Assembly (NCBI GenBank): GCA_905178155.1
Contig: CAJINV010000002.1
Coordinates: 1,463,809 to 1,527,808, forward strand
Reading direction: 5' to 3'
Source of the DNA: Amoebophrya sp. A120
Lineage: Eukaryota; Protista; Dinoflagellata
Length of the DNA stretch: 64,000 nucleotides
The notes beneath the pieces are model-generated. The model saw only the letters and a program-made list of their open reading frames with translations, was not told the DNA's origin and did not search any database. The position numbers and the translations under genes were made by a program. Of this stretch, positions 9,683-60,964 are shown one piece after another. Position 1 is the stretch's first letter. Each line of letters opens with the position of its first letter.

Positions 9683-11573
9683 TCACACCTTCGGCTCAAT
9701 TCTCAAGGCCACCAAGGAAGCCCTGGCTGGTAAGGCGCTGAGATCTTCGGTACTGCCGCCCTCGAGAGGAACGACGGCTGCGACGTCCTCCTCGCCACCC
9801 TGTTCTTCGTGAACGCCCAGGGAAGTCGACCCGCGCCGCCGATGTTCGGTTACACCCCCGTGCGAGGACTGCTCGGTTGTGCGGCCGCTCAAGTCGCTCG
9901 ACCTCTCGTGGGACTTTTCGTCTCGCCGAGGCTGGTAGTTTGCAGAAGATCCATGATTCCTCCGTGGTGACATTAGTCCCGAGGAATTTGATTGACTGGT
10001 TCGGCGTCCAGAACTAGTGTGTCCCGTGCAATAGCGAGGACTACTACTCCCGTGTTGTTGGCCACGACGCCCGCCGCTTTGACTCGTCCTTCGTCCCGAG
10101 GTAGTTTGGGACGATAACATCACCCCATCACCCGCACTGCCCTCGCGCTGGTTGTGATGGGAAAGATGAGAATGTTGAGTCTGATACACATCGCGTAGGA
10201 TGGCGGACCGGCTGGACATCATCGATGCGTCGGTTGTTTTTATCTATCCTGGGGAAAAATCTAGTTGACGTAGTACTCACAACGAACTTCTACCCCAATG
10301 AATTCTCATGCTTATGATTCGCATCTGAAGCAGAAAATTTGGAACAATGATACGCAATTCTAGTTGTGCTGTTGTGGCATGATTTGTATCCTTTGTATAA
10401 AGAATGCAGCAGCAGCTGCAAGCAGGATAAGCACGCAGATGTTGGCCTTGTGACGATGCCCATGTTGACCGCACAAAAAATAAGGCCAACGCGTCGCACT
10501 AGGGTGCTGCCGATTAGCTAGAAACTTGCATATGCGTGACTTCCACCAAGAAAGCGTCTTGGTCTGTGTTGGGTACGTAAGTTCCCAACGTGATCGATTG
10601 CCTATGGGGTCGTCGTAAGCAATACGTATTTAATTTCCTCGGGATATCTCCATTGTGGACGGCTTTATCGTCGACCCGGCGGGGGTTGTGATCGGCGAGG
10701 TCGGCGAGAACGCAACACTACGCAAAGAAAATGTAGAACCTACTGCACCCGGGGTAGTAGGTGCAGACACGGTCGCAGTTCGTCGTTCTACATCCGCATC
10801 CCGCCCGCCACCTATGATCTGAATCTGCTCCAAAGTAGCTCCCGGTGGGCCCGTGGTTCTACTGTCAACCACCCGGGTACTAGTTCCACCCGTGCCCGTG
10901 CCCCACCGCTCTTGGATGATTTTGTCGTCCCTCCATTTCCAAATGCAAATCCCCACGAATGCGACGCTGACGACGTATCAAATGCAAACATGTCTGGGTC
11001 TGGAGGAGTCATGCTGCTTTTGCATGGCACCGAAGGTCTGGTATGGGAATTCTAGCATCACAGGTCTCGAGAAGCTTCCGCAATGCCGAATCCGCATGAC
11101 AAATGCCCCATTTTGGTGACAAAAGGTGGGAAATTTTTGCTGCCTGTGCATGAGAGATCTTTATGTGTTGTGAAATGCGCATCACAAGTTCCGACTCTTC
11201 CAGACCCAGACATATTTGCAATGCATACCACGGCGATGATGACGAAAAAATAGGTCATGTCCACCGCCGCGGTGAAGCCTTGACTGTCTTCGCCTTCCAC
11301 GTGGATCGTGTCCTGGTGGCCTTGCTCCGCGTGCTGGTGCTGAGTCACGTCGGCGTGGGCTAAGGCTGGTCGTACAAGTAGTGCAACTAGTATCGGGGCG
11401 ATGTTGAGTACTAGCTGGAGTTGGGTTGCTGCGAGGGGAAATGTTGAAGAGGCGCATTTCAACTTTTGGGTCGCGGAAGAAATTTTTGAAATCGCACTGC
11501 CTGAAGATGTTCCCTGCCGCGGCGGTCCACAAGGGCGAGGCGGCCGCATCGCTGGTGCAGCAAGGGCAACCAT
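9683..11573 (-). CDS. Hypothetical membrane protein (~408 aa), three exons split by two introners
   Basis: Removing 10976-11227 plus TSD rebuilds a TM helix (YFFVIIAV/VSVAFVGICIWKW). Removing 10245-10646 plus TSD joins ORF 10630-10956 in frame to ORF 9683-10222. Confidence 0.65.
10245..10646. mobile_element. Degenerate introner (402 bp, unique family)
   Basis: TIRs are tatcctggggaaaaat..acgtagtactcacaacga versus rc tatcccgaggaaatta..acgtattgcttacgacga. The TSD is decayed (ttatc/tctcc). Removal of 404-407 nt restores frame. Confidence 0.6.
10976..11227. mobile_element. Introner family A (252 bp)
   Basis: TIR tatcaaatgcaaacatgtctgggtctgga / ttccagacccagacatatttgcaatgcata. Imperfect TSD cgacg/ccacg. 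Confidence 0.92.
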
Positions 11574-13399
11574 TTTTTCTTTTTCGTTGAAAACAATTAC
11601 GGAAAAAACTGTAAACCTAAGGTAGAAATAAAGCTGGTGCAAGTTGAAAATGGCACCTGACGAGCAACTGATATCGGGCTGGGAGACGAAGAAGTTCAAA
11701 TGGTGACTCAGATGCACAACCGGGAAACAATGCGGAATAAACGGGAATAGTAGAGGCGACAAATCATTCAATGACCACTGCTTGCTTTCAATTTAGAAAC
11801 ATACAACTGAAGACAACTACGACCACAGGAATTCGACAAAACCGAGGCAGGAGGTGAGAAGCCGCTGGCAAGGAGCGCACCGAAAGCGGAAGAGTGTAGG
11901 AGACCGAATTCTGTTGAAATTGCGTACGAAAAATGAGTACCGATCGGGATACTCATGTGAGGCCCCGCAGCCACACTATTATCTTGTTGCGTACCGAGAC
12001 AGACTCAGACAGACGAGAAAACCGTACGTGGAACGAAATAACCGATTTTTCACGTCTTTGTTCAACTACACCGAAATGCTGAATTCTATGTGCTCTTTGG
12101 AAAACTCGAACTCTTCTATGCCTGCATATGGTACCTTTCTTGCGATACTTCTGTTTGGAAGCTGATCAAATCAAATCTCCTTGTAAATTCTCAAAAAAAG
12201 ACTGTGCAACTACCGCAGGTCGGAATCATTAGTACCTTGAAATTATACGACACAAGTGCTTTTTTGTTCTCAACTATTCATACAATAGGTCTTAGTGTTG
12301 ACTAGTGAACGAGACCACCATGCGACACCAGAAGTCGCAGGACAACCAGCACAGCCTGATACTCGCACCAGCAACACAAATCCAATTATTCACTGAAAGA
12401 AAACTACAAAATTTAGAGCAGAAAACGGCAAATAGCGACGGAATTTTCAGAGTTGCTGCTTTGTAATCCCCAGAATGAAATAGGCTGATGCAGTGGCAGA
12501 GGGACGAAAGATTGGATAGGCTAAAAATCGTATTTTTTTACATCGCAAAAAAAGTAATAGTACAACTCAACTTTTCAATTACAACTATCAGTATTCGCAA
12601 GGGACGAGACGAGCTAGATGAAACGAAAATTCTCAAAAGATAAAGAAAAAGAATCGCCAAGCTAAACGGATGAATATCAAACGAAGTTGTTGTAGAAAGA
12701 TACTTGTCGAACTAAATAAGTTTTTGCGTTTTTGTTGCAGACGAAGGGTTTGCGTTTTTGCAAAAAAGCAGTTTAGTAGACACAACCATGGCAGAGAACA
12801 AGTACGGCAAGAAATGAGCTCGTTTTCTTTTTACAATTTGTTTTTGTTTACATTTAGCATACTGAAATAAAGTGAAACATCAGCAAAATCGAGAAACTAC
12901 GGAAATAAAGTTAAACCTCGACCAAATTGAAAGACAAATGCTCGAAACGGAGGAAGAGTAGTACTTAGCCTTGATATTACCCGATACAAGACGAGTACCA
13001 TAAATTTGTTTTCGCTTGTTGAAAAAATTGTGAATTATTGCCAAAGCACATTTATCGTTGATGTGAGGAAATTGATGCAAATCTTGTTTGACTAAACATG
13101 ACTTGTGAAGATGAAGTATTTGCTCGTGGATCTTGACCACGGATGTTGACTGTGAAACCGGCTGTATATTGGCAGAAGCTGCTATATACACTGTAACCTC
13201 TATTGACGGAAGAAAGAAAATTTCTACACGGGAAAGGAGAAAAAACCATTCGAATTTTGTGAAGCCCGATTTATTTTCTAACAGCTATCTCAAGTAGCAC
13301 AACCTCGAGGTCAGTCGTCGTGCAGAAGTACTAAGAGTCCCTGATGTCAACACGTCTTTGTCCTCAATGACTCCCTGGTACTTTATCAACTTTCACTCC

Positions 13400-16300
13400 T
13401 TACCTTCCCCCTTTAGCAGAAGAAGTCCCGCCGGCGTTGTTGTTCCGTTGCGCCCCTGCACCACCACGCCAGTTGTTGTTGGAAGTCATGTTTCCACCGC
13501 CGTTCATGTTTCCCGTAGTACTCATCTGTTGGCTCTGATTGTACGCAGAGGCGTGCGTGTTGTTATTCCCATAGACCGCGGTGTTCATCATCATGGACCC
13601 AGCTTGCATCTGGTTCATCCCGTGTTGCTGCCCCCACGAAGCAGACCCGTTCTGGTGATGTTGCGGGCCCCAGTTACAGCCTCCAGTCGCGTAGGAACCA
13701 GGAGCGCCGCCCCAATAATTGGCGCTGTTGTTGTAAGAACCCTGGTGGCCGCTGCAGCCTCCATAGCCGCCGTTCATCATGCTGCCGTTGTACTGGTGCG
13801 CGGCCGGCGCACCGGGATAAGAACCATTACCCTGACTGCAGCTTCCGTTGCCATTCATTTGATTGTACTGCTGGTTGCTGTAGTAAGTGGCATTTCCCTG
13901 CTGCTGCATGTTTCCGTTGTTCCAGTTCGCATTCTTACTGTAATTGTTCATCCCTGCTCCGTTGTTCTGATGCATGTTTCCACCGGTTGTGCCTCTGTTC
14001 TGCTGTTGATTCGCCGTCGTGCCGTTCTTGTTACTATCGCCAGAACCGCTGTTGCTGTTCCCCTGCTGCATGACTCCTTGCTGCTGCTGCCGGTTCATCC
14101 CACCGCTTTGACTACTATTGTTCTGCGCATTATTACCACCACCTCCGTTGCGCTTCTGGTGATGCTGATTGTTAGTTCCGTGGTGATTGTGGCCGTTATT
14201 ACCATGCAGATTCCCGCCGCGGTACAGCGCGTGCCCGACCCGATCGACCACCGCCTTGGCCTCCGCACATTGCGGCCAGCAGGACTTCACAACCTCATTG
14301 TACAGATACTCATCCTGCTTGCACATCCGGAACAAGGTGTCAAACTCCACACCAGGTCCGTCCTTATCAAATGTTAAAATGTCTGGGTCTGGAAGCTTGC
14401 AATTTGTCATGCTGTTTTTGGATTCCAGAAAAAGAATCTGTATTGCATGAGTACCACAAGGAATGTAATTTTTGCTACGCGGAGAGGGCGTTTGTCATGC
14501 GGAATAGGTATCAAGAAGCTCTCAAAAAATCCGTGATGCTAGGGCATGCATCACAGACATCAGGGCTCACGCAAAGCGTGCATGACAAGTGTCAGAATCT
14601 TCCAGACCCAGACATTTTTACAGTTGATAGTCCTGAAACGCTTGTAAGACAACGCTCCGCGCCTTCAAGACCCAGTCGGTATTATTGTTCTGCTGATTGT
14701 TTTGTTCATCCGCGCTCTTATTCATCTGGTTATTTCCACAGTTGTTGTTTGTGCTGGAATTGTTGTTAGTCCCACTTCCTCCGTTCCGCAACAACCCTAA
14801 AGCCAACGTCCCATAGGTTCTCGCATCGGGCGCAACATCAGATTTTTTCATCAATTCCGGAATCTGCAGTGCGTGCTGGAACCATTTGTTATTCAGCAAT
14901 GCGGAGAGCAAGCAGGTGAAGACGTGGTTATTCAGCGAAATGTTGTACAACACCGGCCACTGCTCCACTAATTTCAACGCCTCATCCACTTTCTGCAATC
15001 TCCCGTACATCTTGATCGCAATCGTCAACGTGAAGTGCGACGGGGTGAAACAACAGGTCGGTTTGGAGGTGGTAGTGTTGTTGCCGTTTTTATTCGCGTC
15101 ACCATTTATTTCTTGACCAGCATAATTCTGGTTGTAAATCATCTCATTAAACAACTCCAGCGCCTGCTCGCATTTGTTGTTCTTCACACAACCGTCTAAA
15201 AGCGTGTTGAAGATCACCTCGTTCGGTTTTAACATTCTCGTTTCCTCATTGCAGAAATGCTTGCGGTAAATCTGGATCCCGTGGTCGACTAGGCCATGCA
15301 TCATGTAGCCTTTGATGAGAGTGCCGAAGGTGATGATGTCGAGTTTTAGGTTTTTACTGAGCATTTCCTCGATCAATTCTTCCGCGTTTTGCATCATGTT
15401 CTCCTCTGACCGGCAGCAGGCGTCGATCAAAGTGTTGTACGAAACCTCGTTCATCAGGACCTGATAGAATTTCAATTTCTTTTGGTAGTTTTGCATGGCA
15501 AAAACACAAGCTCATGCGGATTCGCGCATGACAAAAAAAAGTGCGTAAAGTAAAAAAGAAATACGTTGTTCTCCCGCACGAACCCCAGCGCCTCCTTGGC
15601 CCGCCGTTCCAGCGCAAACCCCTTCAGCAACGTCGAGTACATAATCGGGTTGGGTTTCAGGATCGTCTTGTAGCTATTGAACAGCTCCAGTGCGTAGTTC
15701 ACCTGGTTGTTCGACACGCACGCGTCAATCATACACCCAAGAGTGATCTCATCCGGCTGCAAACCACACGTCGTCACCATCTCCGCCCAGAGCTTCTTCA
15801 CGTTCTCCAGGTTTTTCAAAATTCCCCAGCCCTTCAACAAAGATCCATACGTCGGCACGTTCGGGAATTTGATCTCGTTACACTCTAAAATCCGCTTCAA
15901 CCGTTGGTATTCTTTCCCGCGAATGCAGGAATCAATCGCCGTTTTCAATAAAAATTCATCCTGCCCGATCCAGATCTTATCCAACAGTTTAAAAGCCGCT
16001 TTGTTATTCTTCGCGATGTTCACGTTCACGTGGTTCGTCGATTGAACCCGCACCGTTTTCAACATGATCGTCACTGTGTAGTGGTCGATCGGGTACTTGA
16101 TCCCACAAAGGCCCTCGTTGATGATCCGCCAGGCACGTCTCGAGTCGCCCATCGAGACCGCAAGGTTTAAGATGGAGTTGTAGGAGACTCTATCCGGAGT
16201 GAACTGGGATTTCTGCCGTAATTGCTCCAAACAATCAAATGCATCGGGTAAAGTGTGGCAAAACGCCTTCAAATACGTGTTGTAGGAGACAGAATCATAT

Positions 16301-19300
16301 CAAATGTAAAAATGTCTGGGTCTGGAAGAGTCATGCTGTTTTTGCATGACACAGAAGGTCTGGCATGGAAGCTCAAGCATGACAGGTTTCGAGAAGCTTC
16401 CGCAATGCCGAATCCGCATGACAAATCCCCCACTTTGGTGGCAGAAAGTGGACAGCTTTTGCTCCCCATGCATGAGAGATTTTTCTGTGTTCTGAAATGC
16501 GCATCACAAGTTTGTATTCTTCCAGACCCAGACATTTTTGCATTTGATAAATCACAAAGGTTGAATTGCTCCATTTCTTCCAGAATCTCCTTCGCCAATT
16601 CCCGTTTCTTATCCTTGTTGCAGAATTGCTGATTTAACGAGACGATCGTGTCGAGCAGCGCGTTGTAGGCCGGACGGATGAGAGTGTAGTGATTGGAGGA
16701 AGTGTCTTTGTTGCTGTTGTTGTTTCCGGTTGTGGTAGCAGCATAAGCATTCGCCTTGGTTATCTCCTCTGCATTTTGATTTTCCTTGCCCTGCTCGCTG
16801 GTGTCTTCTTTATTCGCGTGGCAGGCAGCGGCGTTGTTCTCGCGGAGTAATTTCACAATCGACTTCGCCTCCTGTAATTTCCCTTGCCGGCCGAATCCGC
16901 GAATCATGGTGATGTAATCCTTCAAATCCAACTGTTTGCTCATGGTTGTGCTGTTCTCAACGTTTGTTGTCCCAGAACTTGTATTGCAGGCGGAGCTACT
17001 CCCTGGTGTTTCCGTCAACGACACTTGCCGTCCTGGGTTGGTGTTCATCACCATCGGACTCGGGAGAGTCACAGATTTGTCTAAGCGGTCGTCGTCGTTG
17101 TTGGGACAACAGGCACCCGCAGGAGCAGTGCCTTCTTCATTCACCATGGCGTTGGCGCCCCCGTCGACCTGAGGACTACTGCCAGCACTCGTCTCAATCT
17201 CCCCGGGGGAGGACAAAGAGGACTGCAAAGAAGTGGCACCGGTTGTGATCTCCTGCTCTGTGCTGGTTTCTCCACCAGAAAGACCGCCATTAGAAGTACA
17301 ACCACCCGAAACGCTCGTGTCCGTAGCAGAACAGACCAAGCTGGAGAACAACTTCTCCGCAACATCATATTGGCCGAGCTCAACGCAGCATTTCAAAACG
17401 CATCCTAATTGCGATGTAGAAGGCGTGTTCTGCTTGTTGGCATTGTCGGAATTAGCGTTGGCTGTATTCCCGGTTTGCAAGTGCTGAAAAGCCGCGTGCT
17501 GGTTCTTGCGCGGGGAGGGGAGGTACTCTGTTTCAAGTTTCGATTTGTTCATGCGAATCTGTAATGCGGAAAAAGGTAGAAAAAAGCAGTTTGTCATGCG
17601 AGACTAGCATGAGCATCAATTGAATCAATGAGCAAAACAGAAATCGTCCATACCTGGATGCCGCTCGAAAAACAGTTCACACGCGGGTGAGTACATCGAG
17701 CAACTCGCGTAGACCTGCATCATGGTGTACATCAAATTCGGCATCAGATCCGACATTTTGTCGTAGAAATATTCCGCGAGTTTCAGTTGCCGGAACTCCG
17801 CGCAAATCTGCAGCAAGAAATCCAAATTCTGCGAGCACTCCTTCTGGGTCGGGGTTAGTTGCAGGTACTTCTGCTGGTATTCCTTCTGCGTGAAAGTCGA
17901 GTGCTTGCTATTTTTCGGGTTGCAACCATTTTGCAGTAGAAGTTGTGGTTCCGAGAGCTGCTGTTGCTGCTGTGCATGACAAACTTCGCTTTTTCCCATC
18001 TGCATCAATTCCTTCACGTCGTAAAACTCCGTGTATTGGTCAAACAGCTTTTTGATTACATCGTGGTCGTCTAAATGGTCGCGTAAGTGGTAAATCAACG
18101 ACCGCCAGATCCGTAAGCATTCAGGGTACATGGAGATCGGGGTTAGAAATTGCTTGTTGCCCGTCTGTTGCTGATTGTTTTCCATCAGGGTCGACGTCTT
18201 CTTCCCGCTGTTTGTCATGCTCGGATTGTTGTTGTTCTCGATTTTGTTGTTCATTTCCCCACAATTCAACGGCGGAGAAACCAAATTAGACCGGATATCG
18301 GACAAATCTTCTTTCTCATCCTTGTTCGAAGAAGAATTCTGCGTGACCGAGAGGTCGAACGTGTTGTCCTCTTGCTCGCGGTTGTTCTTGTCTGCCGCAG
18401 CCGCATTGTTCCCTCCGTCACGAGACCCACCGCGCATCTTCTCAAACTCCTCAACTTCACCTTGATTTTCGTTACAGTCGGGCGACTCCAACCACGGTGA
18501 CAACAGTAACGAGTTGTCCTTTTTCAAAACCCCAGAAGTGTTGTTGATCAAGACGGAGGGACTCAAATCCCCTGCGGCGGGGGAAGGTAAAACGTGATGC
18601 GAAGTTTCCGTGATCGGGGTTATTTTCGACAAGGGCGGAGTGATTTCCTGGGATTTGGCATGCTTTTTTCCACCAGCAACAGAGCTGCTGTGGCCACCAC
18701 CACCAATCAGCGCTTCATCCTCGGGGCTCAAGGGGCGGGAGTTGTTACCGGACTTCCCGTTCATCGTCCCGGAAGTTGTGTGCTCCGTCTGGTGGCTGAA
18801 AACTTCGTACTTTCCAGCACCCGTCTGACCCTGCGCCACATGCGAAGACGTGTACCCACCAACATTGGTGCTGCAACTGGCTGTCTTGGAGAATTGCTGA
18901 GCTGTGCTGGTACTGGAAATACTGTCGGAGGACTTGTTTCCATACCCGCCTTTCGACATCGAATTACCGTTGTTGTATTTCGACATAGTGCCTTGGTGCG
19001 TGTACGACTTCCCGAGGTGGTGCTGGTTTGCACCGTTCTGCTTGCCATGGCCATTTCCGCTGTCCTTGCTCGAGCTCCGTTTGTTGTTGTTCCCCGCTGC
19101 ACCTCCGTTTTTCCCCCCACCGACAGAGCTGTTCGTGGTCGCGGAAGAGGAAGTTTTGGACATAGTTCCACCACATTGCGACTCGGTACAACTACCGTAG
19201 TGGTGTTGTGAAGTTCCGCTCCCACCTCCGTGCTCTTGGTGCTGCATCACTACCTCTTCCGTTCCGTTCGTGCTCGGATTCCACGGCGCCGCCCCGGCGC

Positions 19301-22300
19301 TCATTGTAGTCGCAGTTGTACCAGCGCCGGAATTTGTCATGCTAGTCGTAGCACTAGTCCCCATCTGCTGCTGCATCAGCCACATGTTCATCGCGTTCTG
19401 AATGTTCATGTTCATCGCACTCTGCATGTTCATCCCGTTCATCGTCATCGGTGTCGCCCCGTCGTAGGAACTTGTCATGGGCATTTGCATAGAACCAGGC
19501 TGCGTACTCACTCCAGAAGTTCCAAACATATTCATTTGCTGCATGTGCTGCAAAAACGCCATCTGCATAGCGTTGGAAAACTGCATGGGATTGTTGCCGT
19601 TTTGGTTTTGCTGCCCGACAGAATTATTGTTGCCTGTAGTGGCCGCATTGCTCATCAACCAGTCCATGAAACCGCGAGGGTCAGTGGTGCTTCCCCCTTG
19701 TTGCTGTTGCTGCTGCCCGGATCCGTCGTGTGCTGCCGCAGTTGTAGTGCCAGCATTTCCCATCGCAGCCGCGATGTTCACCGGCTGTCCATTGTTCATC
19801 GCTTGCATTTGCGACAACAGCTGTGCCTGCTGAAACACGAGTGCGGGGTCTGCGAAACCAGTAGTGCTTGTTCCCCCAGAAGTTGTTGTTCCATTCCCGT
19901 TGGCATTTCCACCGCCAAACGCCGCGTTGCAGTTACTCTGCATCTGCATGAACATGTTCTGCAAGTTCAAAGCCGCGGCCGCCGCCGCCGCGGCAGCCGT
20001 CTGCGAATTGGCTCCGGCCAACATTCCCGGCATCGGCATCATCGCTCCGTTGATCGACGGAAGCCCAAAACCGCACGCGTTCAACCAGCTTTGTCCGGCC
20101 CAAAACTGATCCGCGGCTAGCGCGTACTCCTGTTCCGCTTGGAGTTTGTCCGGATCGTTTCCAACTAGCTCTTGATGCTGTTGCAACGTTGGATCGGTCG
20201 TGAAACTATCGCCTGGCGAAGAGGTTAACGCGGAGAGATTCAGCATGTGGTTGTCGATTTGGATCTGGTTGTTGCCATTGACGTTACTCGCATTTCCCCC
20301 AGCATCACAAGTTCTAGTTTTGCTGTTGCTGTTTCCGATGCCAGCGTCTTCCTGTCCATCCGCCGGTGGCGGTGGCGGCGGGGGAACGATTTCGTGCTGC
20401 TGCTCTTGCTGCTGCTGTTGTTCCATAGCATGACAAGCTGCTGTTCCCATTTGCGCGGCGGCGGCGGCTCCTGGGGGTGCTGCAGCCACCATGATTTCTC
20501 CACTGACCGGGTTATAGTAGGTCGGAATCCACTGTTCCTGCGCAGGTGGTTGCGCTAACATCGCTGTACCCTGCTGATGGTGACCATACGTCGTATGATC
20601 CATTGCTGCTCCAGCCTGCTGCTGGTGGGCAATGGCAGCACTACCACCCATTTGATGTTGTCCGCCTTGCAAGTTGCCAACCTCCTGTGAATGATGTTCT
20701 TCCTCTCCCAAAACTTCCACCCCGCTGTCACTACATTCCTCACTCTCCTCCGCAGAGCTACTGCTTACCGCACAGGAACTGGAGCTGGTATAGGCTTGTG
20801 TGTCATCTATGCATTGCAAATATGTCTGGGTGCGGAAACTTGTGATGCAAGAAAGGGAAGAGTGAGCACACTGTGATGCGCTGCCCAGCATGACAAGTTT
20901 TTCCGTGGTTCTGCTTCTGAGTTGCGTACTTCGCATGAGAAACTGCGTTTGTGCATGAAAGACGCGAGGAGTTCTTCGCGGCCACGCAATACAAAGTTCA
21001 GAGTCATCGTTATGCCAGACGAGCATGACACATCTCGCAATCTCCCAGTCCCAGACATATTTGAACTGGATATCATCGTCCTTCTGGCAACTCGTCGGGC
21101 AATCTTGGTGCTCGTACGTCGGGTAAACGTTACAGTTCGCCGGGGGGCTGTTGTTCGAAACAGATAACCCTGGTGGACTATTGAAAATCCTCTCCCTTTT
21201 TGTCATGGAGCTGTTGTTGGAAGTTATTTTAGACGAGGATTTCCTATTCCCGTCGTGGTTCTTCTGATCCGGCGTTTTAATATTAACGCTGCTTGCGTTC
21301 GAGCTCGCGTTTGCAGCAAGGTTGCCGCGACTGTTATTCATTCCGTGATTGTAAGATCCCCCGCCGTTGCTGGTACCATGATTTCCACCACTCCCGCTAT
21401 TCGTCTTCGACCGTCGCATCTTTTCACTGTTGCTCATGGTCTGCGAGTGGTTCGAAGCGGAATTGCTGCGTTTATGCGGGGGGGTGCGAACCCCGCACAG
21501 GCCCATCGTGGTACCCTGTTGGTTTTGGCGCTGGATGGAAATGTCGGGGGAATTGGGATTCGAACCCGCGATGGAAGCGGCCTTTTGTTTGTTGTCGTTG
21601 CTGCGCTTGCGAGCCGATAAAGAGTTGTGATTTGCAGTGCCGGTTGAAGGACCATTGCTGTTATTGTTGTTCCACTGGTGTTGGTTGTTATTGTTTGTCA
21701 TCCCGCTCATATTTGCGGCTCCTTTCGACGCACCAGTTCCGCTGTTGCCACTGTAATTCGGGTTACAGTTGTTGCCATAAGTAGACCCACAACCCGACCG
21801 GCCTTTGTGATTCTGGTTTTCATTTCCGTAGTAAGCGTTACTATTGTTCACCCACTGGTGATTGTACTGCATATTATTACCTGTCATCATACCGCCTGGG
21901 ACAGTAGAACCCTTCATATTGCCGTACTGGTTACCACACCCGTTCCAATAACTTGCATTCGGCTGGGCGTAATAGCCTCCAGCACAAGCTCCATTCTGAT
22001 CACCAGTAGCGTTGTTCATACCGTTCTTTTGCAGAACCGTTTTGATGTTGCCACCGGTAGTACCCGCAGAAGATTGTTGCATTTGGCCATTATTTCCACC
22101 ACCACCGGAGCAAGAGTTGATATACGCGATGCCCGCATTCAAATTCGAAGTCGGACCAGAAAAGTCCTGCTGTGAAGACATGTCTACTTCCACTTTGCTC
22201 GTCTTGCGGCGGTTGTTTTGCTGGTGCTGATTCATCTTCCCATTGCCATTGCCATTCGACGAACCGGTGTCGCCGCTCTGCTTGTTTTGCACGTCTGTAG

Positions 22301-46764: not shown

Positions 46765-46806
<42 letters not shown>

Positions 46807-47610
46807 GAAATAAAAAAAAAAACAGAAAAAAAAATCAAAAAAGAAAAAAAAAGTATAAAAATAGAAAATGACGAAAAAAAAGAAAAAAAAAAGAAAAAAA
46901 TAAAGAACAATCAACATAACAAATTAAAAAAAAAAAAATTAATATAAAAAAAAAAGATTAAAAAAAAATAAACAAAAAAAAAACTAGAAAAAAAGATAAA
47001 AACAATAAAAAAAAATAAACAGAAACAAAAAAAAGAAGATAAAAAAAAAAAGAATTAAATCAGAAAAACAAAAAAAAAAAAAATAAAAACAAGAAAAAAA
47101 AAAAAAAAAAAAAAAAAAACCAATATAAAAACAACAAATAATAAAACAACACAAAAAAAAAAAATAAAAAAAAATAAGAAAGAAAAAAAAAATAAAAAGA
47201 AAAAAGAAAAATAAAAAAAAGGAAAAATAAATATAAATATTAAAAAAATAATAATAAAAAAAAAAAAAAAACAAAGTAGCATAAGATATAAAAAAAAAAA
47301 TTAACAAATAAAAAAAAAAAAAAAGAAAAAAATAAAAAAATAAAAAAAAGAAGTAAAACAAAACTAAAAAAGAATATAATAAATATAAAAAAGAAAAAAA
47401 TAATAGAAAAAAAAAAAAAAAAACAAAAAAAAAAGAAAAACAAAGAAAACCAAAAAAAAAAACAGAATGAAAAAAAAACGAAAACAAAAAAAAAAAAAAA
47501 AAAAAAAAAAGAAATAAAAAAATAATAAAAGTAAAAGTTAAAAAATAAAAAAAAAAAAAAAACAAACACAAAACAAACAAAAAAAAAAAACAAAATATAA
47601 AAAAAACAAG

Positions 47611-47643
<33 letters not shown>

Positions 47644-50215: not shown

Positions 50216-53083
50216 GTTGGCTTTTTTATAGGTCTTTTTGTAATTATGCTAGTTCTACGTATTACGCTCTTGGTGCCATCTTGGTGGTGCAACAGAAGTT
50301 GCGCAGCTCTCTGTCTCTTCGGTACGCGATCTATCCGCACACTCTCAGGTGTGCGGACGAGTTCTAGTTTTCATTTGAAAGGTGCAGTGCGACGTGGTGA
50401 TTATTGCTGTAAAAGCCGAAACGTCTGTGAAACCCACGAGCCACCAGTTTGCCTTACTCTCTCTAAAATCCGCAGCTCCAAAGAAGATATCCATCATCAC
50501 ACTCGCAGTCATTTCTCTTATGCTCGAATCTACTCGCTCGAAAACTATACATATTTAAGCACTTCCGTTACCTTGACCTGCTACCAAGGAATTATACGAC
50601 TGCTACGAACGAATCCTTGCACAAAACGTTCCACGACGACAATCTATGTCGGATCTCTCTGGAAATCTCGCCGGCAAAACGACGAGTCTCAATTAGATAT
50701 GAGGTGAACACGGTGCTGACCTTGACCAATACGGCTACATTCGTGTCGGCAAGGGCCTTGCCGACAAGCCGTTCGTCTACTGCTGTTGCCATAAAGTGTT
50801 CTTTCGTCCTCCGACGCCGCCGGATACGCCCAGGACACGGGCTCCAGCAGCCGCGCCATATCATAATATATGGGGCGCTGCCACATGTGCGAGTGGGGCG
50901 CTGGGCGAAAAAGGCCACAGGAATATTTCCCGGCGCCCCGCCTGTGCTATACAGAAGCGGCCCGCCAAACAAAGAAAGTGCCCGAGGACGGGGCACCTGC
51001 TCGGCCCCGGGCTGGCAGACAGGCCCCCTGGTCGGCACACAAGCAGAGCGCGCCCCCGCTGCGGACTTCGTACGACGGGCGCCGCGGCCGGCAGGCAAAA
51101 GCGCGCCGGCCGCCGCGAAGAAAGCGGCGCGCCCGGCCTGCGGCAATGTCGCCGCGGCCGCATCACTTTCCGGGGGCTAAAAATGCGGCAAGCATGGCCC
51201 GGGCTTCGCTCCACAGTTGAAGGCGCTTCCCCCTGCCAATAAATCAAAGAGAGCAAGGGCGGCAGTTGCCTCTTCGCTGGATCTTCGAAGAAATTGATCC
51301 GCGACCTGGCCCCCAGTGGTCAAACTACAGCCGCGCCAGCCACTGCTCTCGGAGCGGCCAGCGGCGGGCCCGCGCCTGCCATTTCCCGGAGCACGCATCC
51401 TCGGAACGACTGCCCCCCCGGCCACCAGTCTGCGGGCGCGCCGCTCTCAATCCAGCAGCCACGACGAAAGAAGCTAATCAAAAAGCTACTATATGTCAAT
51501 GATGAAGTAGTATAGAATGAAAAAGTCCAATCCTCCAACTCGCCTTTCCTGCTCAAAGTCCGTTCCCAAAACTTGTGACTCTTCGCTCACCCTCACATCG
51601 TGACAACGTCCCACTTCACTGCCCGCTCACCCTTTAACAGTCTCGCCTCTCACGTTAGAAAGATCATGAGAGGACGACTCAGAGTACATGTCTAGCATCA
51701 AAGCTGCCTGCGACGGATGGCTCAGCCGAGAGCGGTCGTCACGGAACACACAGCGAGCCGGCGCCATCAGCGGCCATCTTGCATATTGGCCAAAACAAAC
51801 CGACAGGGCCCAGTCCAAATATGCGAAAGTACTAGCTGTATATCTTCACCTTTCTGCCCCATCGCTTACAGCTTTCCCCTTGACTACGTACTCCCGAAGC
51901 ACAGAGCGAGGGGCGGCTGCAGGAATGGTGCGTCCGCGCCTGTAAAGGGGGCCCGAAAGTTATTGCGCGCTCGGCCCCCGGGGCTGGTCGCACGGTGCCA
52001 ACACGAAGCGCGGCTGCAGCAGTGGCCGCAACACGGAGCCGGCGCGCTGCCTGGCACACGTGGCGCGAAAGAAAGCGAGCGCGCACAAGGGGCAATGCAT
52101 GGAGCGGCGGAAGCTGCCGGAAGCCCTGGGGCGCTGCGCGGTCCCAGGCAATCAACACGGCAGGCGGCCGGGACCGGTAGCCTGGGCGGGCAAGAAAATG
52201 AGCGGCCGGCGCCTTTCGGCGCGCGGGCGCTTTTGGTTTGGTCGGCGCGCCCTTGCATTTGCGACGCGATTCGCGAATGCCGTCGCTTTCTTTTGCGCGG
52301 CAGCTGGCCAATGAGCGCTTCTGCCCGTACGGGTCCGTGTCCAGGGACAAGGCCGCCCACTTGATGCAGGACGAGGGGAGCCTGTGTACTGCGGCAACAT
52401 CCTTCGCGCCTCCGGTCGGCTTTTGCCATGCTGAAGCGCCAACACAACCGCCCACCCTCCTGGAAAGCCAGCGGGCAACCAAGGCGGCCCGCCCATTCTG
52501 CTCACGCGCTGGCCAGGGCATGACGTTGGCAGCAAGCAGAAAACGCCCGGCCTGCAGCCCATCCAGCTGGCCCGGGCGCAAGTACTACGCAGCTACAACA
52601 TGACGAGGTGCGCCATACAACTCCTAGTGTTACGCAAAAAAAGCCACTCTGTCCGTCGCTCTATATCTCTCGAGTGGAGTAGTTCTCCTCACAAACTCGA
52701 ACTACATTTGAGCGGCTTGATCTCTCTTTACATCCGCTCTACCGGAACTATAACGCACATCACTCGCGCAGGACAACACGTTGCATCCGATGAACAAGAT
52801 GAGCTTACTGCAGTTGTAAAACCCTGCTGCAGCACGGGCACCTTTTCCAGACACCCCCCATTTTGCTCATTCGCTGAGCAAGGTATTGAACCTTCGTTGT
52901 GCGTGTGTTATTGCAGCTTCTATCTCGATGGGGCGAAGGCCCGTGTCGCAAGTGTCGCTTTTCAATTGTAAGCACAGTATTGTAGCACCACTCTGCGGCT
53001 CTACTACATGCGCAGTAAAATCAATCGCATTCGGGAATCTTCAAGGAGTTGTTCAATGCCATCAACTAATTCAACCTCCAATC

Positions 53084-54618
53084 TCACACCAACCTCCCCA
53101 AATCGAACCCGGTTGCGTTCTTAAACATCGCCCCGGCCACCCAACTCTGCATCTTGTCCTTCTGGTCCCGTATCAACTGCAAAAATATTTGGATCTGGAA
53201 ACTTGTAATGCTGCGTTGGGACTAGTGAATGCTCTGTAATGCACAGGCAAGCACGAGAAATATCTGCGCGTCCTTGTGTTGCGTTTTTCGCATGACAAGC
53301 TGCGTTTTTGCATGACAGGCAAAAGGGTCTCTTCTTGGACACGCATCACAAACTTTGTTTTTGGTCATGCCGGACAAGCATGACAAGTCTCGCAATCTTC
53401 CAGACCCAGACACTTTTGCATTTGATATCCCGGGAACACTTCCAAAACGCGACCAGATTGCTCCAGGCGAACACGTTGGCAACGACGAGGAAAACGACCC
53501 AACTGAGGTTCAGGGAGATCACGTTCAGGATGAGGAAAAGCGTCCAGATCAACGCCCAGCTATACCTGTTTTCATTTTTTCGTTTCGATAAGAGAGTAGT
53601 CGCAGTTTTGATCATTGGTTTTGCGCATGACAAAAGACCGCAGTCAAACCAAAGTCATTCAGCTTTATGCATGACAAAGAGACCAAAAAAAAACATACGT
53701 TCCCAGCCAGAAGACGTTTTTGTCGAGCGGATCCAGCTGTGATTCGTCTTGCAAAGACTCGAAGATCCATTCGTTGACCTCCTCACCCGTGGCTTCGTCG
53801 TCTTTTATGATGTTCCACCAGCGGAGACCTACTAGCTTTCGTCCGGTGACGTTCTTTACCTTTGAGAAGAAGTGCTTTGTCATGCAAAGTTGTCAAGCAT
53901 TTATGGTACTTATTTGTCATGCGAACCAGGGTAAGATCATCTCACGCTCAAAACAACAACCAGCTATACCGTCCAGAAGTCGAAAGCCAAAAATAGGATG
54001 CAGAAGATGTAGGTCAGCACTGTGTTGCTCCACAGGTAACCGCCGAAGAGGTAGGCGAAGAGGCTGTTATTGATGTGATCACAAGTCAACTGAATTTGTA
54101 TTGCGCAATCATCCTCAGAAACATCATTTCTCATGCGATGAAACACCTTAGAAGGGAAGTGAATCAACAGCATCTACTCTTTTATACCACAGCATCTTGA
54201 AGAGCAGGTGAAAGCAGCACACGACCGGGTGCTTCGCGTTTTTTATGAACTCCGGTATGGCCTGCTGCAACGCCGTGGGTGGCGGCGCGGACCCAAACCC
54301 CGTCATCTCTTGCGCCCCGCCGGCGGGGACAACTGGGGTCATGGTGCCGGATAATGAACTCGGTGTTGATACCCCGCCTCCGAGCGACCCCGCCATCGAA
54401 ACCGTCCCGGTTGTACTTGCGGTGGAGATTTTCTCCTGGCTGAAAAAATTATCAAGCTCATTTCTGCTCGCTTGCGGCGCAGTTGTACTGGTGGAAGGGG
54501 CAGGAGTGCTGCTTATGTCCGCGAAAATGTCGTCTATTGAGTTCCCAGCCGGCTGCGGATTCGCCGACATCCGGGGCGGCTGGTAGTTTGAACCGGTGCT
54601 GTTACCCGTTTCGAACAT
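53084..54618 (-). CDS. TVP23: Golgi membrane protein TVP23 (DUF846/FAM18), ~301 aa, 5 exons
   Basis: Signature motifs HPVVCCFHLLFK and [25 protein letters not shown]. GT-AG introns at 54064-54187, 53860-53969 and 53566-53698, plus an introner at 53171-53427, leave 906 nt in frame. Confidence 0.93.
53171..53427. mobile_element. Introner family A (257 bp)
   Basis: TSD tcccg/tcccg. Spliced product reads KCSRD/QKDKM (262-nt removal changes frame). Confidence 0.93.
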
Positions 54619-55525
54619 TGGGACGTGGTGCTTGGGTTCACGTAGTGCTCGTGGTTCTCGTGTCTTGGTCTCGTGGACGGAGCACAGCAAGTACTGTGAA
54701 ACGACTACAGTTTGTCGCTGCAATCAATGCTGGTGAAACGATGGTTCCAAAAACGACAAGCAGCTCCTGTACGTGATGCGTTCAAAAACTCATCTTGTCT
54801 TGTTAAAAAATCTGGCTTAGGACAGGGTGAAGTTGCAGTCAGAAGTTTTGCTCGTGTTAAAAACAATGTGGAGTGGAAACTAACGCCGACAATCTGGTGC
54901 TGTATTCGTCAACGTCATGATGAAGCAACCACACCGACGGACATTGAGGACCCTACAAGCGTAAGGCACGCTACATAGACAAATCTTCAAAAACGAAATT
55001 TGTCCACGAAGTACGGTAGCGGTGCAGCAGGGTGATGTAACCCGCTGTAGAACAGCGAGTCACTTTCGCGCAAACGAAAGTGGAGACAGCCCCTGCGCCG
55101 TTAAAAACGCATGGATCGCCGTTGTGTCAGTTCGAATCAATTGAAAGTGGTTTGCCTTTGTCTCGTCCCAAAAAAATGATTCAAAAGTGAGTATTCATCA
55201 TGATCATCTGTGCCACGTCCAGTCAGGCTCGCAGGTAGGAAGAAAATGAAAAGCCGTAAAGGGTCCACAGCCTTCCATATCTACATCGCAGTCGCACATA
55301 AACGGTTTATTTTCAAAGACTGCTTTTTGGCTTCCTTAAACCAACATTTTGTTCTGAAAAAATTCCTCGAAAGATGAAAATAACCACCATTTTAAATCTT
55401 TATTCTCGAGCATGATGTGCAGAAAGCCAACCCTGCTGTACGTCCGCTCAGCTCCACTATAGATGTCGTGCTACCAAGAGATGTTGAGAACAAACCGTCT
55501 AGAGCAGTTCGTTGTCATGCGGATT

Positions 55526-57998
55526 CTACATCACCACAATTTTCACCGTCCGTCCATTAATCTCCCCGCCGTCGAATTGGTGTTCCGCTTCATAGGCGTC
55601 TTTCGATTTTTCAAACACCACCCAACACAAATTCGCGTTTTCGTCAATTTCCGTCGTAACGACATCCCCAACTTCCTCAAACGCCCGCATAAGTTCCTCC
55701 TGCGACATGTTGGTCGGGCAGTTGTGAATCTGGATCATTTTCCCGAATCCCCGGTACTTCTCGACGGTTGTTGGGAGATGGCCCTTGTTGCCGTAAACCA
55801 CAGTCTGGGCTTTCTTTTCGACTTGACCGTGGGAGGAGATCACATCCAAAGCGTTGATCTTGTTGCCAGCGGAACGACGGGCGGTAGAACTAGTGTTCTT
55901 GTTCCTACTGACCGGGTGCTGTCTCGAAGTGCTGCTGGATTCTACTCGGTTGTCAACGACCTCCGGTTGTTCCCAAGAATTGTCGGAATAACTTTGCTCG
56001 TCGTTGTTAAAACTCTGCTCAACGTTATACCGATTCTGGTTGTTCCAGGACCGGCTGCGGGAACGATTCCGAGTATTCGCTCTCGGCGGACCGGCTTCCC
56101 ACGAGTCGTGCTCGTCGTGGTCTTTACCGCGTTTATTGCCTTTCTTCCCTTTTCCCTTCTTGCCCGAGGAAAATCCGCCTTTCCGCTCGTAAAAACCGAC
56201 GTTCCAGTCCTCGTAGTCCATATTCAGCCGTGGAGTCCGGTAGTTTTCGACGTAAGGTTCTTCTCGTTCTTCTTCCTCATAGTTGTAAAAATCCTCGGGC
56301 TGTTCGTGATTTTTCCCACCATTATACCACGACTTTCCGTAACCACCTTTTTTCCCGTCGTACCAGTAATCACCCTTTCCGTTCTTACCGTCTTTCTTGC
56401 CGTAATACGGCGCTACAACACCTCCGTCCTTCTTTCCAGAATAGGGGCCGTGGTTCTTGCTGTAGCCCTTTCCCTTTCCTTTGGAGTTGTACCAATCATC
56501 TTCCCATGCTTCTTGACCGCCTTTATTCCCCTTCCAGGAGCCGGAATGATCGACTGTGTAGGAGGTGTTGTAACTGTTGTGTTCTTCTTGGTAGCCGTTC
56601 TTCGAACTACCCTTCATCCACGGTTTTCCCTTCATCATGCCCTTCTCAAAAGCGGAATACGCAGAATAATCGTCGTTGCCTTTCGAGGTGGTACTTTTTC
56701 CGCCGTAGGACTTGTCTTTGCTACCTTTCTTTCCCGTTGTGCCGTAGTAAGAAGCGGACCAATTATCTGCACCACCGTTATACCCGCCCTTGCTACCGCT
56801 TCCCTTCTCCTTCCCCTTCGCCCAAGATGGAGGCGTGTAGGTATACCAGGTGTTCCGACGGAGGACCACTTTGTTCCCGGTAGAAGCACTGCTTTTTCCT
56901 TTCTTCCCTTTCGTACTATCGCCTTTCCCGCTTGTGCCGTCGCCAGACTTGCCTTTGCCCTGTTTTGTTGTTCGAGATATGAAATTATTCAATTTGCGAC
57001 AAAAATCAAAATGTGAATGGGCTTGTGTGCTGCATTTGCGTCAAGTTCCGATCATTTCCAAGTTACGTCATGCAGGATCAAGGAAAAAACCATATCAATA
57101 CCTTCCCGCCCTTCGCACTACCACCTTTAGGTTTCTTGATCGTCGCTCCTGCCTTTCGAACGAGGGTCGCCTTTTTCCGTCCTTTCAGAAATTTCACAAC
57201 CGCGGCACGTGCAGCCAGTCTCGCCTTTCCGCCCTTAGACGCGCCCTTTTTCGTTGTAGCTCGTACGCGTTTCAACTTCTGTGCGAGTGTCCGCTTTTTC
57301 GACAAAGCTGACATCTTGCCGATAGTGGACGTGGGTTTCTTCTTCAGTACGAGAGTCCGCTTAATTGCAGGTCTAGTAGTTGTCGCTTGTTCTACTTTCG
57401 AAGACTGCTTTTTACCCTGCTGTTTTCCCTTGCCCTTCGCTGGTCTGGTACTACCGCCCTTGGTACTAGAGGAGGGCTTCTCTCCTTTCTTGTTGCCCTT
57501 CTTCCCCACAAGACCACCGGAAGTAGTAGATGCAGCTCCCTTTTTCCCCGTCTTCCCCTTCCCTTTGGTCTGAAACTTCGCGGCCAACAGCTTCTTTTTC
57601 GCCCCGAGCTTCTTCACCAGTGCGGCAACGGCGGCTTTCTTCAGAATGGTGCCCCGCTTCGTGGTTTTCAGCATTCTTTTTGCATTCGTCAGAGCCGATG
57701 TGGAACTACCGGTAGTGGTTTTTTTTTTCGCAGCTTTAGTTCCAGCCAGTTGTTTCTTGCCCTTAGAAGTAGTTGCGCCAGCCTTGGTTGAAATAGAAGA
57801 TGAAGCACCTTTTATACTGCCGGTTCTTTTCGCTCCTTGTTTCCCTTTGCCCTTCATCTTGCTGTTTTTTCGAGGGCTGCCCGAAGCTGTGGTGGCGGTA
57901 GCGGTACTGCTGTTGGATTTGGTTTCGCGGGGTGGGAAGGAAGGTTTGGTCGGGTTTTTCGCTATCAGGTCGTCGAGACTGCTATCGAGTTTGCCCAT
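55526..57998 (-). CDS. Aly/REF (THOC4/Yra1)-like mRNA export adaptor, ~776 aa, 2 exons
   Basis: N-terminal REF-N-like motif MGKLDSSLDDLI, a long KGKG-rich region and a C-terminal RRM (IQIHNCP..CWVVFE..FDGGEINGRTV). GT-AG intron at 56960-57101. Confidence 0.8.
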
Positions 57999-60481
57999 TT
58001 TCGAAATTTTTGTGAAAGGGTTGGGGTCGTGTGGTATCGTGCTTGTTATAGAAGTTGATCTTTCTAGTAAGAACTTTGCTGGGGAAAAAAGGTAAAAAAG
58101 AAAAAGGTTGTTTTTCAGTCAATTCGGTAGAGGTTCTAATATCTCCGCTCAACTAGAAACGGGAGCTATCGCTATACGTATCGGTATTCACAATATGCTA
58201 AATATGCTGTGATACGTGCGCGTGCCTCTACAACAATATGTAACTTTGCGTACTGCGTCGGCCTGGAGCACAACAAGGAAAAATGAAAAGCAGTTGCGAT
58301 CTTTAAAAAAAAGGCACAGAAAGAACATGTCGGAACTGGAGGTCTTGGTATTCTGGAGGTTTTCATGATCAACAAAAGGAAAGTCATATCAGAACATGTT
58401 GCTGAACTGGAGAGAGATCACTACGGTTCGCATAATAATTCTGATGGCAAATATTATCTTCCAGGAGAAGGAGAAGCGTGTATGCGTCAGATGCAAGAAT
58501 CCCTTCAGAGGTCTTGAGTAGGTGAGAAAGCACTCCATGCAGAGAAGTAAAAAAAGTAGTTCAAGTAAGTAGCCAGTAAAAGCGGTTCACAATGACGAAC
58601 ATACAGGAACATCTTTGCCCGGACCTCAGCTGGTTTTCCCGCTTTCCTTTGGAAAGCCATGAGAAACGAAAATATATAATGCCGCCCGCAGCGGAGCAAC
58701 GGGCCACAGCCCGCAGAGAGAAACAGTTCAGAGGCGGCGCAGCCTTGCCGCGCCAACCCGCCCTTCTTTCGGCGCGGCCTCCAGACTGGCCGGGCGGTCG
58801 GACAGGCCCCGCACGCGGCGGGGGGCCTGGCGGTGTGCAATGATCCCCGGGAGCCGACACGGGCACAAATGGGGCCGCGGACAAAAGGGCCGGGGCGGGT
58901 GCCCTCACCAGTCTGGCCAGGCGAAAAGACGAAGGCGGGCTCGGAAGCCCGCGCGCGCGCGCGCCGGAAGCAAACGGCCGGCCGCGCGGCCGCGAGCGGC
59001 GCGCCAAGGGCTCGCCTGGTTTCAAACGGGCCACGCAAGGGCCCGGCTTTTTCGACCTTCTGGCACGGCATCCGCCTCGGGGAGATTGGCGCGCTTCGGT
59101 TGTCTTGTGGGGTCTTGCGCCGGCGCTGCCGCTCCTTCCGGGTAATAGGCATTTTTTAAACAAAGCGCCAGCGTTATCGGGCCCTACATGCCCCGTTTTC
59201 CAGAACTACATCAAGCGAATTTACAGGCACTTGCGCTATCGGGCCCTACGCCGTTTCCCAAAACATTACTCGAATTTGAAGGCGCTTGCGTTATCGCCTC
59301 CTACACTGTTTTCTAAAACATCAAAGAACTTTAATGAGGAAAAGGCAGCGACGATTCGTCCTGTCACAGATGTACTCAAACCGACCTTCGCTCCAACGCT
59401 TCATGCCTGTGCGACCTCAACCTAGCAGTACCCAACTCCAAATCGCTGTGAAAGACAAGACTAGCCGCTCAACTTGAAATCAACGACTCGACATAGCTTG
59501 AAACTTCACGAGAGGTCCAAAACATGAACAAACTTTTTCAGCGGAGGGGCAATTATCCGAAATAGCAAACGCCCTGCCCAGAGACACAGAATTCAAGCGC
59601 GCCCTTAATGCGGCAATACGGCTGCACGATCGCAAGCACGAGCGAGGGGCCTCGCCAGGACCCCCGCAAGGTCGCAGCAGACGCAACACCCGCACAACAA
59701 GGGCCCGGCGCGAGTGCGCGACCGAAGCAAACGACAGCCGGAGCCCCTAACGGGGCGCGGCCCTTGCAAAGAAAGCAGCGAAGCAGCAGGCCCCGGCCAG
59801 ATTGGCCGGCCGGGAGATGTGGCGCGACCAGCCCCGCGGCCTGCGAGCACCAGGCCAGGCAATCGCCTACCTGACGCAAGTCACGGCCCCCGAGCGCGTG
59901 CGCGTCCGGGGATATTAAGCACATTACTGCCCCGCAGGGCCCCCCTGGGCTTCGCCGCCCTTCTTGTATAGCTAGCCGGCGCAGGGTTCGGCGCTTCGGG
60001 ACGGGAAACTTGTGCCAGCTGAACGCCGCTGCTCTGGTCCGGGGCGGGGGCCCACGCCGGAAGAAAAGCAGTATCGGGTGATTGGCGTGCTCAAGGTCAA
60101 GGGGCCGCGCGCCCTGCGATCGCGGCCCGCGCAGAGGGACGGCCATGTTCCGCAACGGCAAAGCGCCACTGCTGGCCTTCCGGAGCAAAGCGCCGGCGCG
60201 CTGGCCGCTGCGCGCGGGCTCTCTCTTTCTTGTATTTCGTTCTCCTGTTAGTGTTGCTTTTTTCTCCCCAAGTACTGTTTCAACCACTCCCGGACTGACT
60301 TTCACTTTCTCGCTCTCCCCTCCCATCCTTCGCAAATTAAAACGAGCAGTCCAGCAATCAATATGAACAAGAGCGAATAAAGGTCTTCAACGAGAAACGG
60401 ATCGCGCAGATCGCTTCTGCGCCTTCTCCGAAAATAGTGCGCCAGAATGTCAATGCTTTTTCCCTCGAGGTCATAAAGGCC

Positions 60482-60900
60482 TCACGTCATTACCAGTTTC
60501 CTCTTCAACAGAGTCAGCAACGGCACCAGCGCCGGCAAAACCACGGGCAAATACACCGCAGTCGTGAATTCCAAGCTGAAATACAGCTGCGGAACCATCT
60601 TTTCATCATGAACCGCTTCATCGAGCAGAAACAAAATTTGCCGAAGCAGTTGCAGTTCCTCGGACCAAGAACTGCTAGTGACATCAAACGGACTTGTTCT
60701 ACTTGTGCTGTAGTTCATCTTCCCATCATGTTCTCTCCTCCCCGATGTTGTTGTAATTCTTCGCGCCAACAACAACTCCATCTTCTTCCCCGCCAAAACC
60801 AGTTTCTGCATCACGTCCTCCGGAAGAACATTGCTGAACTCGTTCGCATTTTTCACTTGCTCCTGAATCCGCTGCACGTAAATTTCCCTGCAAGCCCTGG
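60482..60900 (-). CDS. PIGS: Last exon of GPI transamidase subunit PIG-S/Gpi17 (5' exons lie beyond the window)
   Basis: AVHDEKMVPQLYFSLEFTTAVYLPVVLPALVPLL matches the PIG-S C-terminal pattern (D..L.YF......Y.P..LP..P.L). Confidence 0.75.
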
Positions 60901-60964
60901 TATCAAATGTAAAAATGTCTGGGTCTGGAAGAATGCAAGTTTGTCATGCTTGTCTGGCATGACT
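60901..60964. mobile_element. Left end of a family A introner, interrupted by a nested element; right TIR not in window
   Basis: tatcaaatgtaaaaatgtctgggtctggaag directly abuts the PIG-S exon. tgtcatgca-rich introner-like sequence resumes at ~63070-63120. Confidence 0.85.

Follow-up and report, generated by a model that had tools for sequence, protein, structure and literature searches.

The DNA considered here, referred to as the window, is a stretch of 64,000 nucleotides of the dinoflagellate Amoebophrya sp. A120 (assembly GCA_905178155.1, contig CAJINV010000002.1, positions 1,463,809 to 1,527,808 of the forward strand). Every host gene that could be read lies on the minus strand; among them are the gene of a public protein, P0001, a DUF846 gene and a PIG-S gene, and all are interrupted by short elements bounded by terminal inverted repeats (TIRs). 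The elements, host genes and introns below are on that strand, and positions are those of the window. In two window genes, single exons match at 100% identity public proteins named Amoebophrya sp. A120, and the elements are therefore the A120 introner system of PMC7789003 itself, not a parallel one; a sequence-only reading made earlier had rightly pointed to Amoebophrya.

As published, the A120 inverted repeats begin with TAT, 7 nt and AAA, those of strain A25 with TTA + RR, and the direct repeats of A120 are 3–5 nt long, given as 5 bp in the legend of Fig. S19; 29,850 introner copies in 1,954 families were counted in A120, 65% of the introns of which are non-canonical (PMC7789003). Their mechanism of excision was left unresolved, U1 was not detected in A25 or A120, and no putative transposase was reported (PMC7789003). 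A relative of these strains that uses GT-AG introns does have U1 (10.1101/2024.09.05.611473). A later catalogue also lists A120 introners, most rows being unclassified TIR DNA elements, with 2–5-bp duplications (19/58 A120 rows), and places an integrase-like open reading frame (ORF) within one TIR-bounded A120 family (PMC12130899). The window elements share with the published ones the host, a TIR starting with TAT followed by about 7 variable nt and then As, direct repeats of 3–5 nt, repeated copies, non-canonical ends and, in one gene, absence from the transcript. Unlike the 2–5 bp of the automated calls in PMC12130899, the duplications in the window are uniformly 5 bp and lie outside TAT...ATA. 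The system itself was thus already known; three points described below, namely a predicted fixed position of the cut, the apparent splicing of a copy that lacks its 5′ TIR and an internal motif common to the families and to GT-AG introns, were not found in the literature text consulted; the figures and logos of PMC7789003, Roy 2023 or Henriet 2019 may show parts of them. A literature match to the internal motif in PMC6482013 proved to be a primer.

The window was scanned for a 5-bp duplication, TAT...ATA and a 30-nt inverted repeat. Sixteen elements matched exactly, as compared with 0–1 in 10 block-shuffled windows, and two further elements (10976 and 36953) have one mismatch in the duplication. 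The total is 22 elements, of which 20 are intact, 16 with exact and 2 with one-mismatch duplications. Self-BLAST gives 10 families (one with 11 members, two with a pair each and seven singles), so that the earlier estimates of about 22 elements and about 10 families hold. The 5-bp target duplication that the same reading had assigned to the elements is present, mismatches allowed, in 18/22; it fails for 10245 (2 bp), 49125 (an A-rich flank), the truncated copy scanned from 42586 (lost) and 60904 (outside the window). The ends have the consensus TAT-S-N6-AAAAA across families, a feature that the sequence-only reading had missed. With TIRs, a duplication of fixed length, no coding capacity and many copies, the elements have the properties of miniature inverted-repeat transposable elements (MITEs).

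Outside the P0001 gene, family A is represented at 10976–11227 (duplication mismatched at sense base 4), 14365–14629 (exact 5-bp duplication), 16298–16549, 20808–21072 (found by the scan) and 53171–53427, the last within the DUF846 gene and 262 nt long with its duplication. Single-copy families supply 10245–10646, found by eye, with its 2-bp duplication and no strict copy of the internal motif, and 31489–31648 (scan); the TIR-bearing element at 49125–49431 belongs to family B and that at 49666–49885 (scan) to family C. Family A occurs in both orientations relative to the sense strand. The element at 16298, 257 nt with its duplication, interrupts a repeat, and the translation across its junction reads ...CDSVSYNTYLKAF, which looks PPR-like by consensus.

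Every frame that was checked is mended by taking out an element plus 5 nt, as had been claimed. Element + 5 is not divisible by 3 in 12/20 window elements, and the 257-, 262-, 269- and 314-nt cases singled out earlier are present at those lengths and change the frame. At no placement of the cut within the duplication do any of the 20 intact elements acquire GT-AG or GC-AG ends, although GA-AG is available in 4/20; in sense orientation two duplications, CACCA (39085) and CCACC (41266), indeed contain no G. The GT/GC...AG ends of a canonical U2 intron are available to 0/20 elements in the window and, at any placement, to at most 8/175 in a second assembly (among the matches listed).

Direct evidence for removal comes from the host gene of P0001 (33520–44700), which has no Pfam family and the spliced form of which is record 10 of sequencing run X4, 6,313 nt long. 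Read evidence covers 30500–44700 and supports one gene; the junction of the element at 31489 is not among the aligned pieces listed. Run X4 has no recorded library type; it is guessed to be RNA because GT-AG introns are skipped and intergenic bins have zero depth. Record 10 aligns to 30500–44700 piecewise with 0 mismatches and is free of 11 elements, each missing together with one duplication; three of these junctions are direct and the others follow from length sums and annotation. The direct junctions skip 35215–35472, 36222–36500 and 36948–37223, in each case element + 5, and correspond to the family A elements at 35220–35472, 36227–36500 and 36953–37223, the last with a duplication mismatched at base 3 and its upstream copy kept. 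A gap of 227 nt equals the sum of the three exons between 39085, 38816, 38369 and 38061, and with the annotation this accounts for the removal of the family A elements at 38061–38324 and 39085–39348 (CACCA), the family B element at 38369–38677 (314 nt with its duplication) and the single-copy element at 38816–39024. A 210-nt gap fits the family C element at 39827–40042, the 150-bp element at 40115–40264 and one GT-AG intron, again in agreement with the annotation. Annotation and a 572-nt sum show removal of the single-copy element at 40817–41068. The 1,258-bp element at 41266–42523 (CCACC), which has neither the strict internal motif nor a long ORF, is removed according to the annotation, and the depth of X4 is zero over 41402–42349 within it. 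The same 11 elements and two GT-AG introns are bridged in the public protein P0001.

Very probably, then, the elements are missing from the mature transcript through removal at the level of RNA. The earlier claim that an element and one duplication are taken out without GT-AG is borne out by the X4 junctions, by P0001 and by frame fits in the second assembly, and the proposed check of junctions against transcripts, carried out for this one gene, found the elements skipped and no nearby GT-AG used at 36227 and 36953. Alternatives of the same length with GC/GT-AG ends exist inside 5/20 elements and would leave element bases in the mRNA; they are contradicted at 36227 and 36953 by X4 directly and at 40115 and 41266 by P0001, the fifth such element being 49666. 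The raw RNA runs X9 and X10, which carry the same species label, do not contain this gene. They contain family A ends on other flanks (aligning to 36443–36500 and 38061–38324), the ends of elements left unspliced at a different locus or in a different strain.

Through the family A end pattern, which had no match among viral contigs, at least 159 loci (L001–L159) were gathered from one other public assembly. Counts for this assembly, here and below, are among the matches listed. The longest duplication was 5 bp in 246 of 399 TIR pairs, many of the others being internal repeats. When the end signature was present at both ends (n = 274), 215 elements had an exact 5-bp duplication, 41 had one mismatch and 18 had more, and in 0/274 was the longest duplication 4 or 6 bp. 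By codon score, both flanks could be called in 49/215, 6/41 and 2/18 of these classes, and removal of element + 5 fitted the frame in 45/49, 6/6 and 2/2, respectively. Element + 5 was not divisible by 3 in 133/207. Among 175 oriented exact cases, GT-AG could be reached in at most 8 at any placement, and G was not favored at duplication base 5, where it occurred 57 times, the same as C at base 1. Mismatches in 32 one-mismatch duplications were distributed 10, 5, 7, 7 and 3 over positions 1–5, from which no register can be read without RNA. When 312 elements were pooled, single-linkage clustering gave at least 22 clusters, all with TAT-S-N6-AAAAA ends. The families are the same as in the window; long matches have about 67–80% identity, some within conserved genes, and Pfam matches near the loci include DNA ligase, SNF2, SET and KN17.

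Perfect duplications mask the site of cutting; its position is revealed by damaged copies. At 36953 the transcript contig retains base 3 of the upstream copy, and both copies of the duplication are confirmed by the DNA run X1; the cut therefore cannot precede the end of base 3, and the GA-AG ends available there are not used. The second damaged copy is the truncated element at 42582–44057 (42586–44057 in the scan), which has kept the 3′ ATA followed by TTCC and has lost its 5′ TIR and duplication. The length of the X4 contig demands 205 nt from the two exons that flank it. P0001 reads MPIDF-S-PAR at this point, and the S is given by one of 20 placements of the 205 nt, with one exon extending to 44058 and the other beginning at 42581. 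The intron so defined starts T-TAAA (annotated TTAAA) and ends 4 nt beyond ATA. Generalized from these damaged copies, the cut probably follows base 4 of the duplication, giving an intron N-TAT...ATA-NNNN. In PMC7789003 the top A25 sites start with TT (9/9) and the top A120 sites with NT (9/9).

The ordinary introns of the window begin similarly. Ten GT-AG introns were assembled from reads, annotation and prediction, three being read- or annotation-backed, three supported by continuity of the DUF846 profile and the others predicted; all ten start with GTA and 8/10 with GTAT. One with a GTAT donor, at 39561–39679, carries the internal motif. The others are at 15461–15564, 17528–17653, 31145–31279, 40493–40636, 44205–44317, 53566–53698, 53860–53969, 54064–54187 and 56960–57101. 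The last holds an internal TATGG...TTCATA stretch and is possibly a decayed introner.

The internal motif, TGTNATGC, which had escaped the sequence-only reading, was defined by eye on the same sequences in which it was counted. Counting both the motif and its complement, there are 64 copies within 6,100 bp of elements, spread over 18/20 of them, where 1.2 are expected. GT-AG introns contain 10 in 1,250 bp, in 7/10 introns (shuffle mean 0.15, maximum 3 in 1,000), as compared with 5 per 23,917 bp of exons and 0 per 20,188 bp of intergenic DNA. It is missing from 8 of the 312 pooled elements and lies mostly 30–49 nt inside the ends, in both orientations. A noisy set of GT-AG introns predicted in the second assembly has 7 in 2,946 bp vs. 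0 in 2,700 bp of flank; two of its candidates end like elements, and one of these carries 2 of the 7. Since two removed elements have no strict copy, the motif is not essential. It may serve the host as a mark of introns, or it may be what persists of introners that have decayed.

With respect to folding, the terminal duplex of intact elements ranges from −22.8 to −74.0 kcal/mol, that of GT-AG introns from −7.4 to −14.1, and that of the truncated copy is −11.8. The 3′ TIR of this copy has no internal partner, the best internal match being 16/30, and nonetheless the copy is bridged in frame by a transcript-like contig and by annotation. A stretch of about 35 nt (31–35) at 44058–44092, in a region of tandem 18-aa repeats, probably derives from the element and is now translated as exon (KIDIFSMPIDF), apparently following deletion of the 5′ end of the element. 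The truncated copy, a single case, weakens, without eliminating, a purely structure-guided route: the earlier proposal of structure-guided excision loses ground as a necessity.

As to mobilization, uniform ends and 5-bp duplications across at least 22 clusters make one shared mobilizer plausible, as had been proposed, and no such enzyme was found in the ORFs scanned: Pfam recognized no transposase family in 25 ORFs of long window elements or in 105 long ORFs of second-assembly loci. When the second assembly was compared by BLAST, copies of elements accounted for all of the 15 longest matches, and no Rfam family was found in 30000–64000. IS3EU/GingerRoot and IS481EU transposons resemble these elements in their short TIRs and their termini, TA..TA in IS3EU and TNT..AYA in IS481EU; their duplications differ, being usually 6 bp in IS3EU and 4, 15 or 25 bp in IS481EU, vs. 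5 bp in the window (PMC10045372). The elements do have the TA..TA termini of IS3EU/GingerRoot, and a 6-bp duplication was seen in 0/274 (among the matches listed), so that they do not qualify as IS3EU.

Two groups of non-canonical introns elsewhere invite comparison. The nonconventional introns of euglenids likewise have a MITE-like origin, ends other than GT-AG that are joined in a stem, and junctions marked by repeats, and there too the overhang is longer on the 3′ side than on the 5′ side (PMC12501133; PMC11282704). They differ in their code, N3CDG...CHG-N5-6|R, as compared with TAT/ATA ends and a predicted spacing of 1 and 4 nt here, and in requiring the stem, whereas one stem-less copy is apparently removed here; the CAG...CTG stem at +4 and −6/−7 was not found, the ends being TAT...ATA. 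The introns of Fritillaria share an origin from transposons with TIRs and target duplications; they are removed by a modified U2-type spliceosome, with AG-AC and AG-AT as preferred ends and a duplicated U2AF (PMC13326754; PMC11282704). In contrast to those preferred ends, the terminal dinucleotides in A120 are arbitrary, and use of the spliceosome is inferred.

We regard it as evenly balanced whether these short TIR inserts with 5-bp duplications are cut by a spliceosome of relaxed end requirements at the predicted fixed register. In this scheme one trans-acting transposase of the DDE/integrase type would insert the elements, reading the TAT-S-N6-AAAAA ends. The 5′ cut would follow base 4 of the upstream duplication, and the 3′ cut would lie 4 nt beyond the ATA end. 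With this register the intron would begin much like the local donor, G-TA(T), save that any base could stand first, and the 3′ site would be measured from ATA rather than from AG. The TIR hairpin may aid by uniting the ends and would not be required, and TGTNATGC might label both kinds of intron without being essential. Removal of the damaged copies, 36953 and the truncated one, suggests that cutting at a fixed position by an altered spliceosome is likely, as opposed to recognition of hairpin shape alone, and changes of the spliceosome have a precedent in tunicates (PMC13326754). As the route of excision, the spliceosome itself stands at about an even chance. More tentatively, and somewhat doubtfully, A120 may have a single splicing code for both intron types, consisting of an N-TA 5′ site with a free first base, a 3′ site at ATA + 4 nt with no AG, and the TGTNATGC mark. 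If so, a transposon of this class would form a clean intron wherever it inserted, whatever its orientation and despite damage, and the harmless spread of thousands of families through coding DNA would be explained.

Several observations weigh against a relaxed spliceosome working at this register. The elements have no 3′ AG. Placement at base 4 in the second assembly gives GT in 57/175, AG in 13/175 and both in 4/175 (among the matches listed), i.e., no selection for either. The register itself derives from one contig junction, which excludes only a cut before the end of base 3, and from a single residue of the annotation; all that the contig fixes at the truncated copy is the total length. 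A preference of the aligner for GT, CT and AT starts can yield the NT bias of Table S4 in A120. The noisy set of GT-AG introns predicted in the second assembly (n = 18) includes 11 with GTA and only 4 with GTAT. Apart from having been defined by eye, TGTNATGC is absent from 41266 and from the truncated copy, both of which are removed. Intact elements fold strongly (z ≤ −3.5 in 18/19), which would hide the donor and any branch region. Read support comes from one gene, and X4, itself guessed to be RNA, may share data with the annotation of P0001.

The main rival, which matches the structure-guided route of the sequence-only reading, is a spliceosome-independent nuclease and ligase that would read the base of the TIR stem, leaving overhangs of 1 nt (5′) and 4 nt (3′), and free the element in circular form. 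It is a substantial possibility, if less than an even one: end pairing is strong in 20/20 intact elements, family A occurs in both sense orientations, there is no need for, or bias toward, GT or AG, and in Euglena, where a stem must lie at a set distance from each splice site, the excised introns are reported to be circular (PMC12501133; PMC11282704). It does not account readily for the truncated copy, which has no matching 5′ TIR (16/30) and is still bridged in frame, nor for the resemblance of element 5′ ends to local GTA donors or the motif held in common with GT-AG introns. The occurrence of TGTNATGC in both orientations, mostly 30–49 nt inside the ends across clusters, and in either orientation in GT-AG introns as well, would suit a double-stranded binding site, and a protein that stems from the mobilizing transposase, or is in common use with it, could bind there or at the ends, on DNA or nascent RNA, and steer excision. 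This is improbable, considering that two removed elements have no strict motif and that none of the 25 window and 105 second-assembly ORFs (the latter among the matches listed) encodes a transposase.

Two further explanations would deny splicing altogether, and both are very improbable. Hairpins flanked by direct repeats are the classic setting for skipping by reverse transcriptase, and the library type of X4 is off record, so the junctions might be artefacts and the elements might stay in the real mRNA. Retention would break the genes, since element + 5 shifts the frame in 12/20 window and 133/207 second-assembly elements; furthermore, flanks are in frame for element + 5 in 45/49 callable cases (second-assembly counts among the matches listed), and the truncated copy is bridged with neither repeat nor stem. 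Slightly less probable still is elimination of the elements from DNA in some life stage, in the manner of the internal eliminated sequences of ciliates, the ends of which similarly start with TA. Although X4 is RNA only by guess, it skips GT-AG introns too and leaves intergenic bins uncovered, and contigs of the DNA run X1 pass unbroken from exon to element at the boundary, which is no proof, as contigs drop rare forms.

More than 60% of the introns of this parasite are removed without GT-AG, and no U1 has been detected (PMC7789003). A spliceosome freed from both terminal dinucleotides would, if real, extend the known chemistry of splicing; a separate nuclease route would, if real, be a second independent case beside that of the euglenids. 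The register, the removal of a TIR-less copy and the common motif each derive from one or two junctions or from one window. Damaged duplications are frequent, 59/274 in the second assembly (among the matches listed), and existing genome and RNA data could set the register genome-wide and probe the need for the hairpin.

Some other features of the window may be recorded. A run of 4,385 bp (44740–49124) that is 80% A separates element 49125 from the next exon and takes up the place expected for the second duplication of the element. It probably arose in assembly, and this could explain the mid-gene start of P0001; X4 record 10 and one X1 contig extend past 44700. In the PIG-S gene, an element with a family A end begins at 60904, is interrupted by a repeat-bounded insert and runs out of the window (60904–64000), and residues 1–579 of the public protein P0002 are absent from 52000–64000. 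The sense duplication at 60899–60903 is CCAGG, so that at the inferred register this element would have a GTAT start and an AG end, a canonical intron, if its upstream copy, which lies outside the window, is intact. The segment 60965–63071 within it has no coding domain by Pfam; it contains internal tandem repeats and two pairs of direct repeats (60965–61046 = 61307–61388 and 61120–61309 = 62882–63071), a layout that presumably recalls retroelements of the Ngaro/VIPER type. Finally, GC-rich intergenic blocks of about 1 kb, with up to 70% GC per kb, occur for example at 7400–9050, 23900–25050, 28600–29900, 32000–33100 and 58700–60200.

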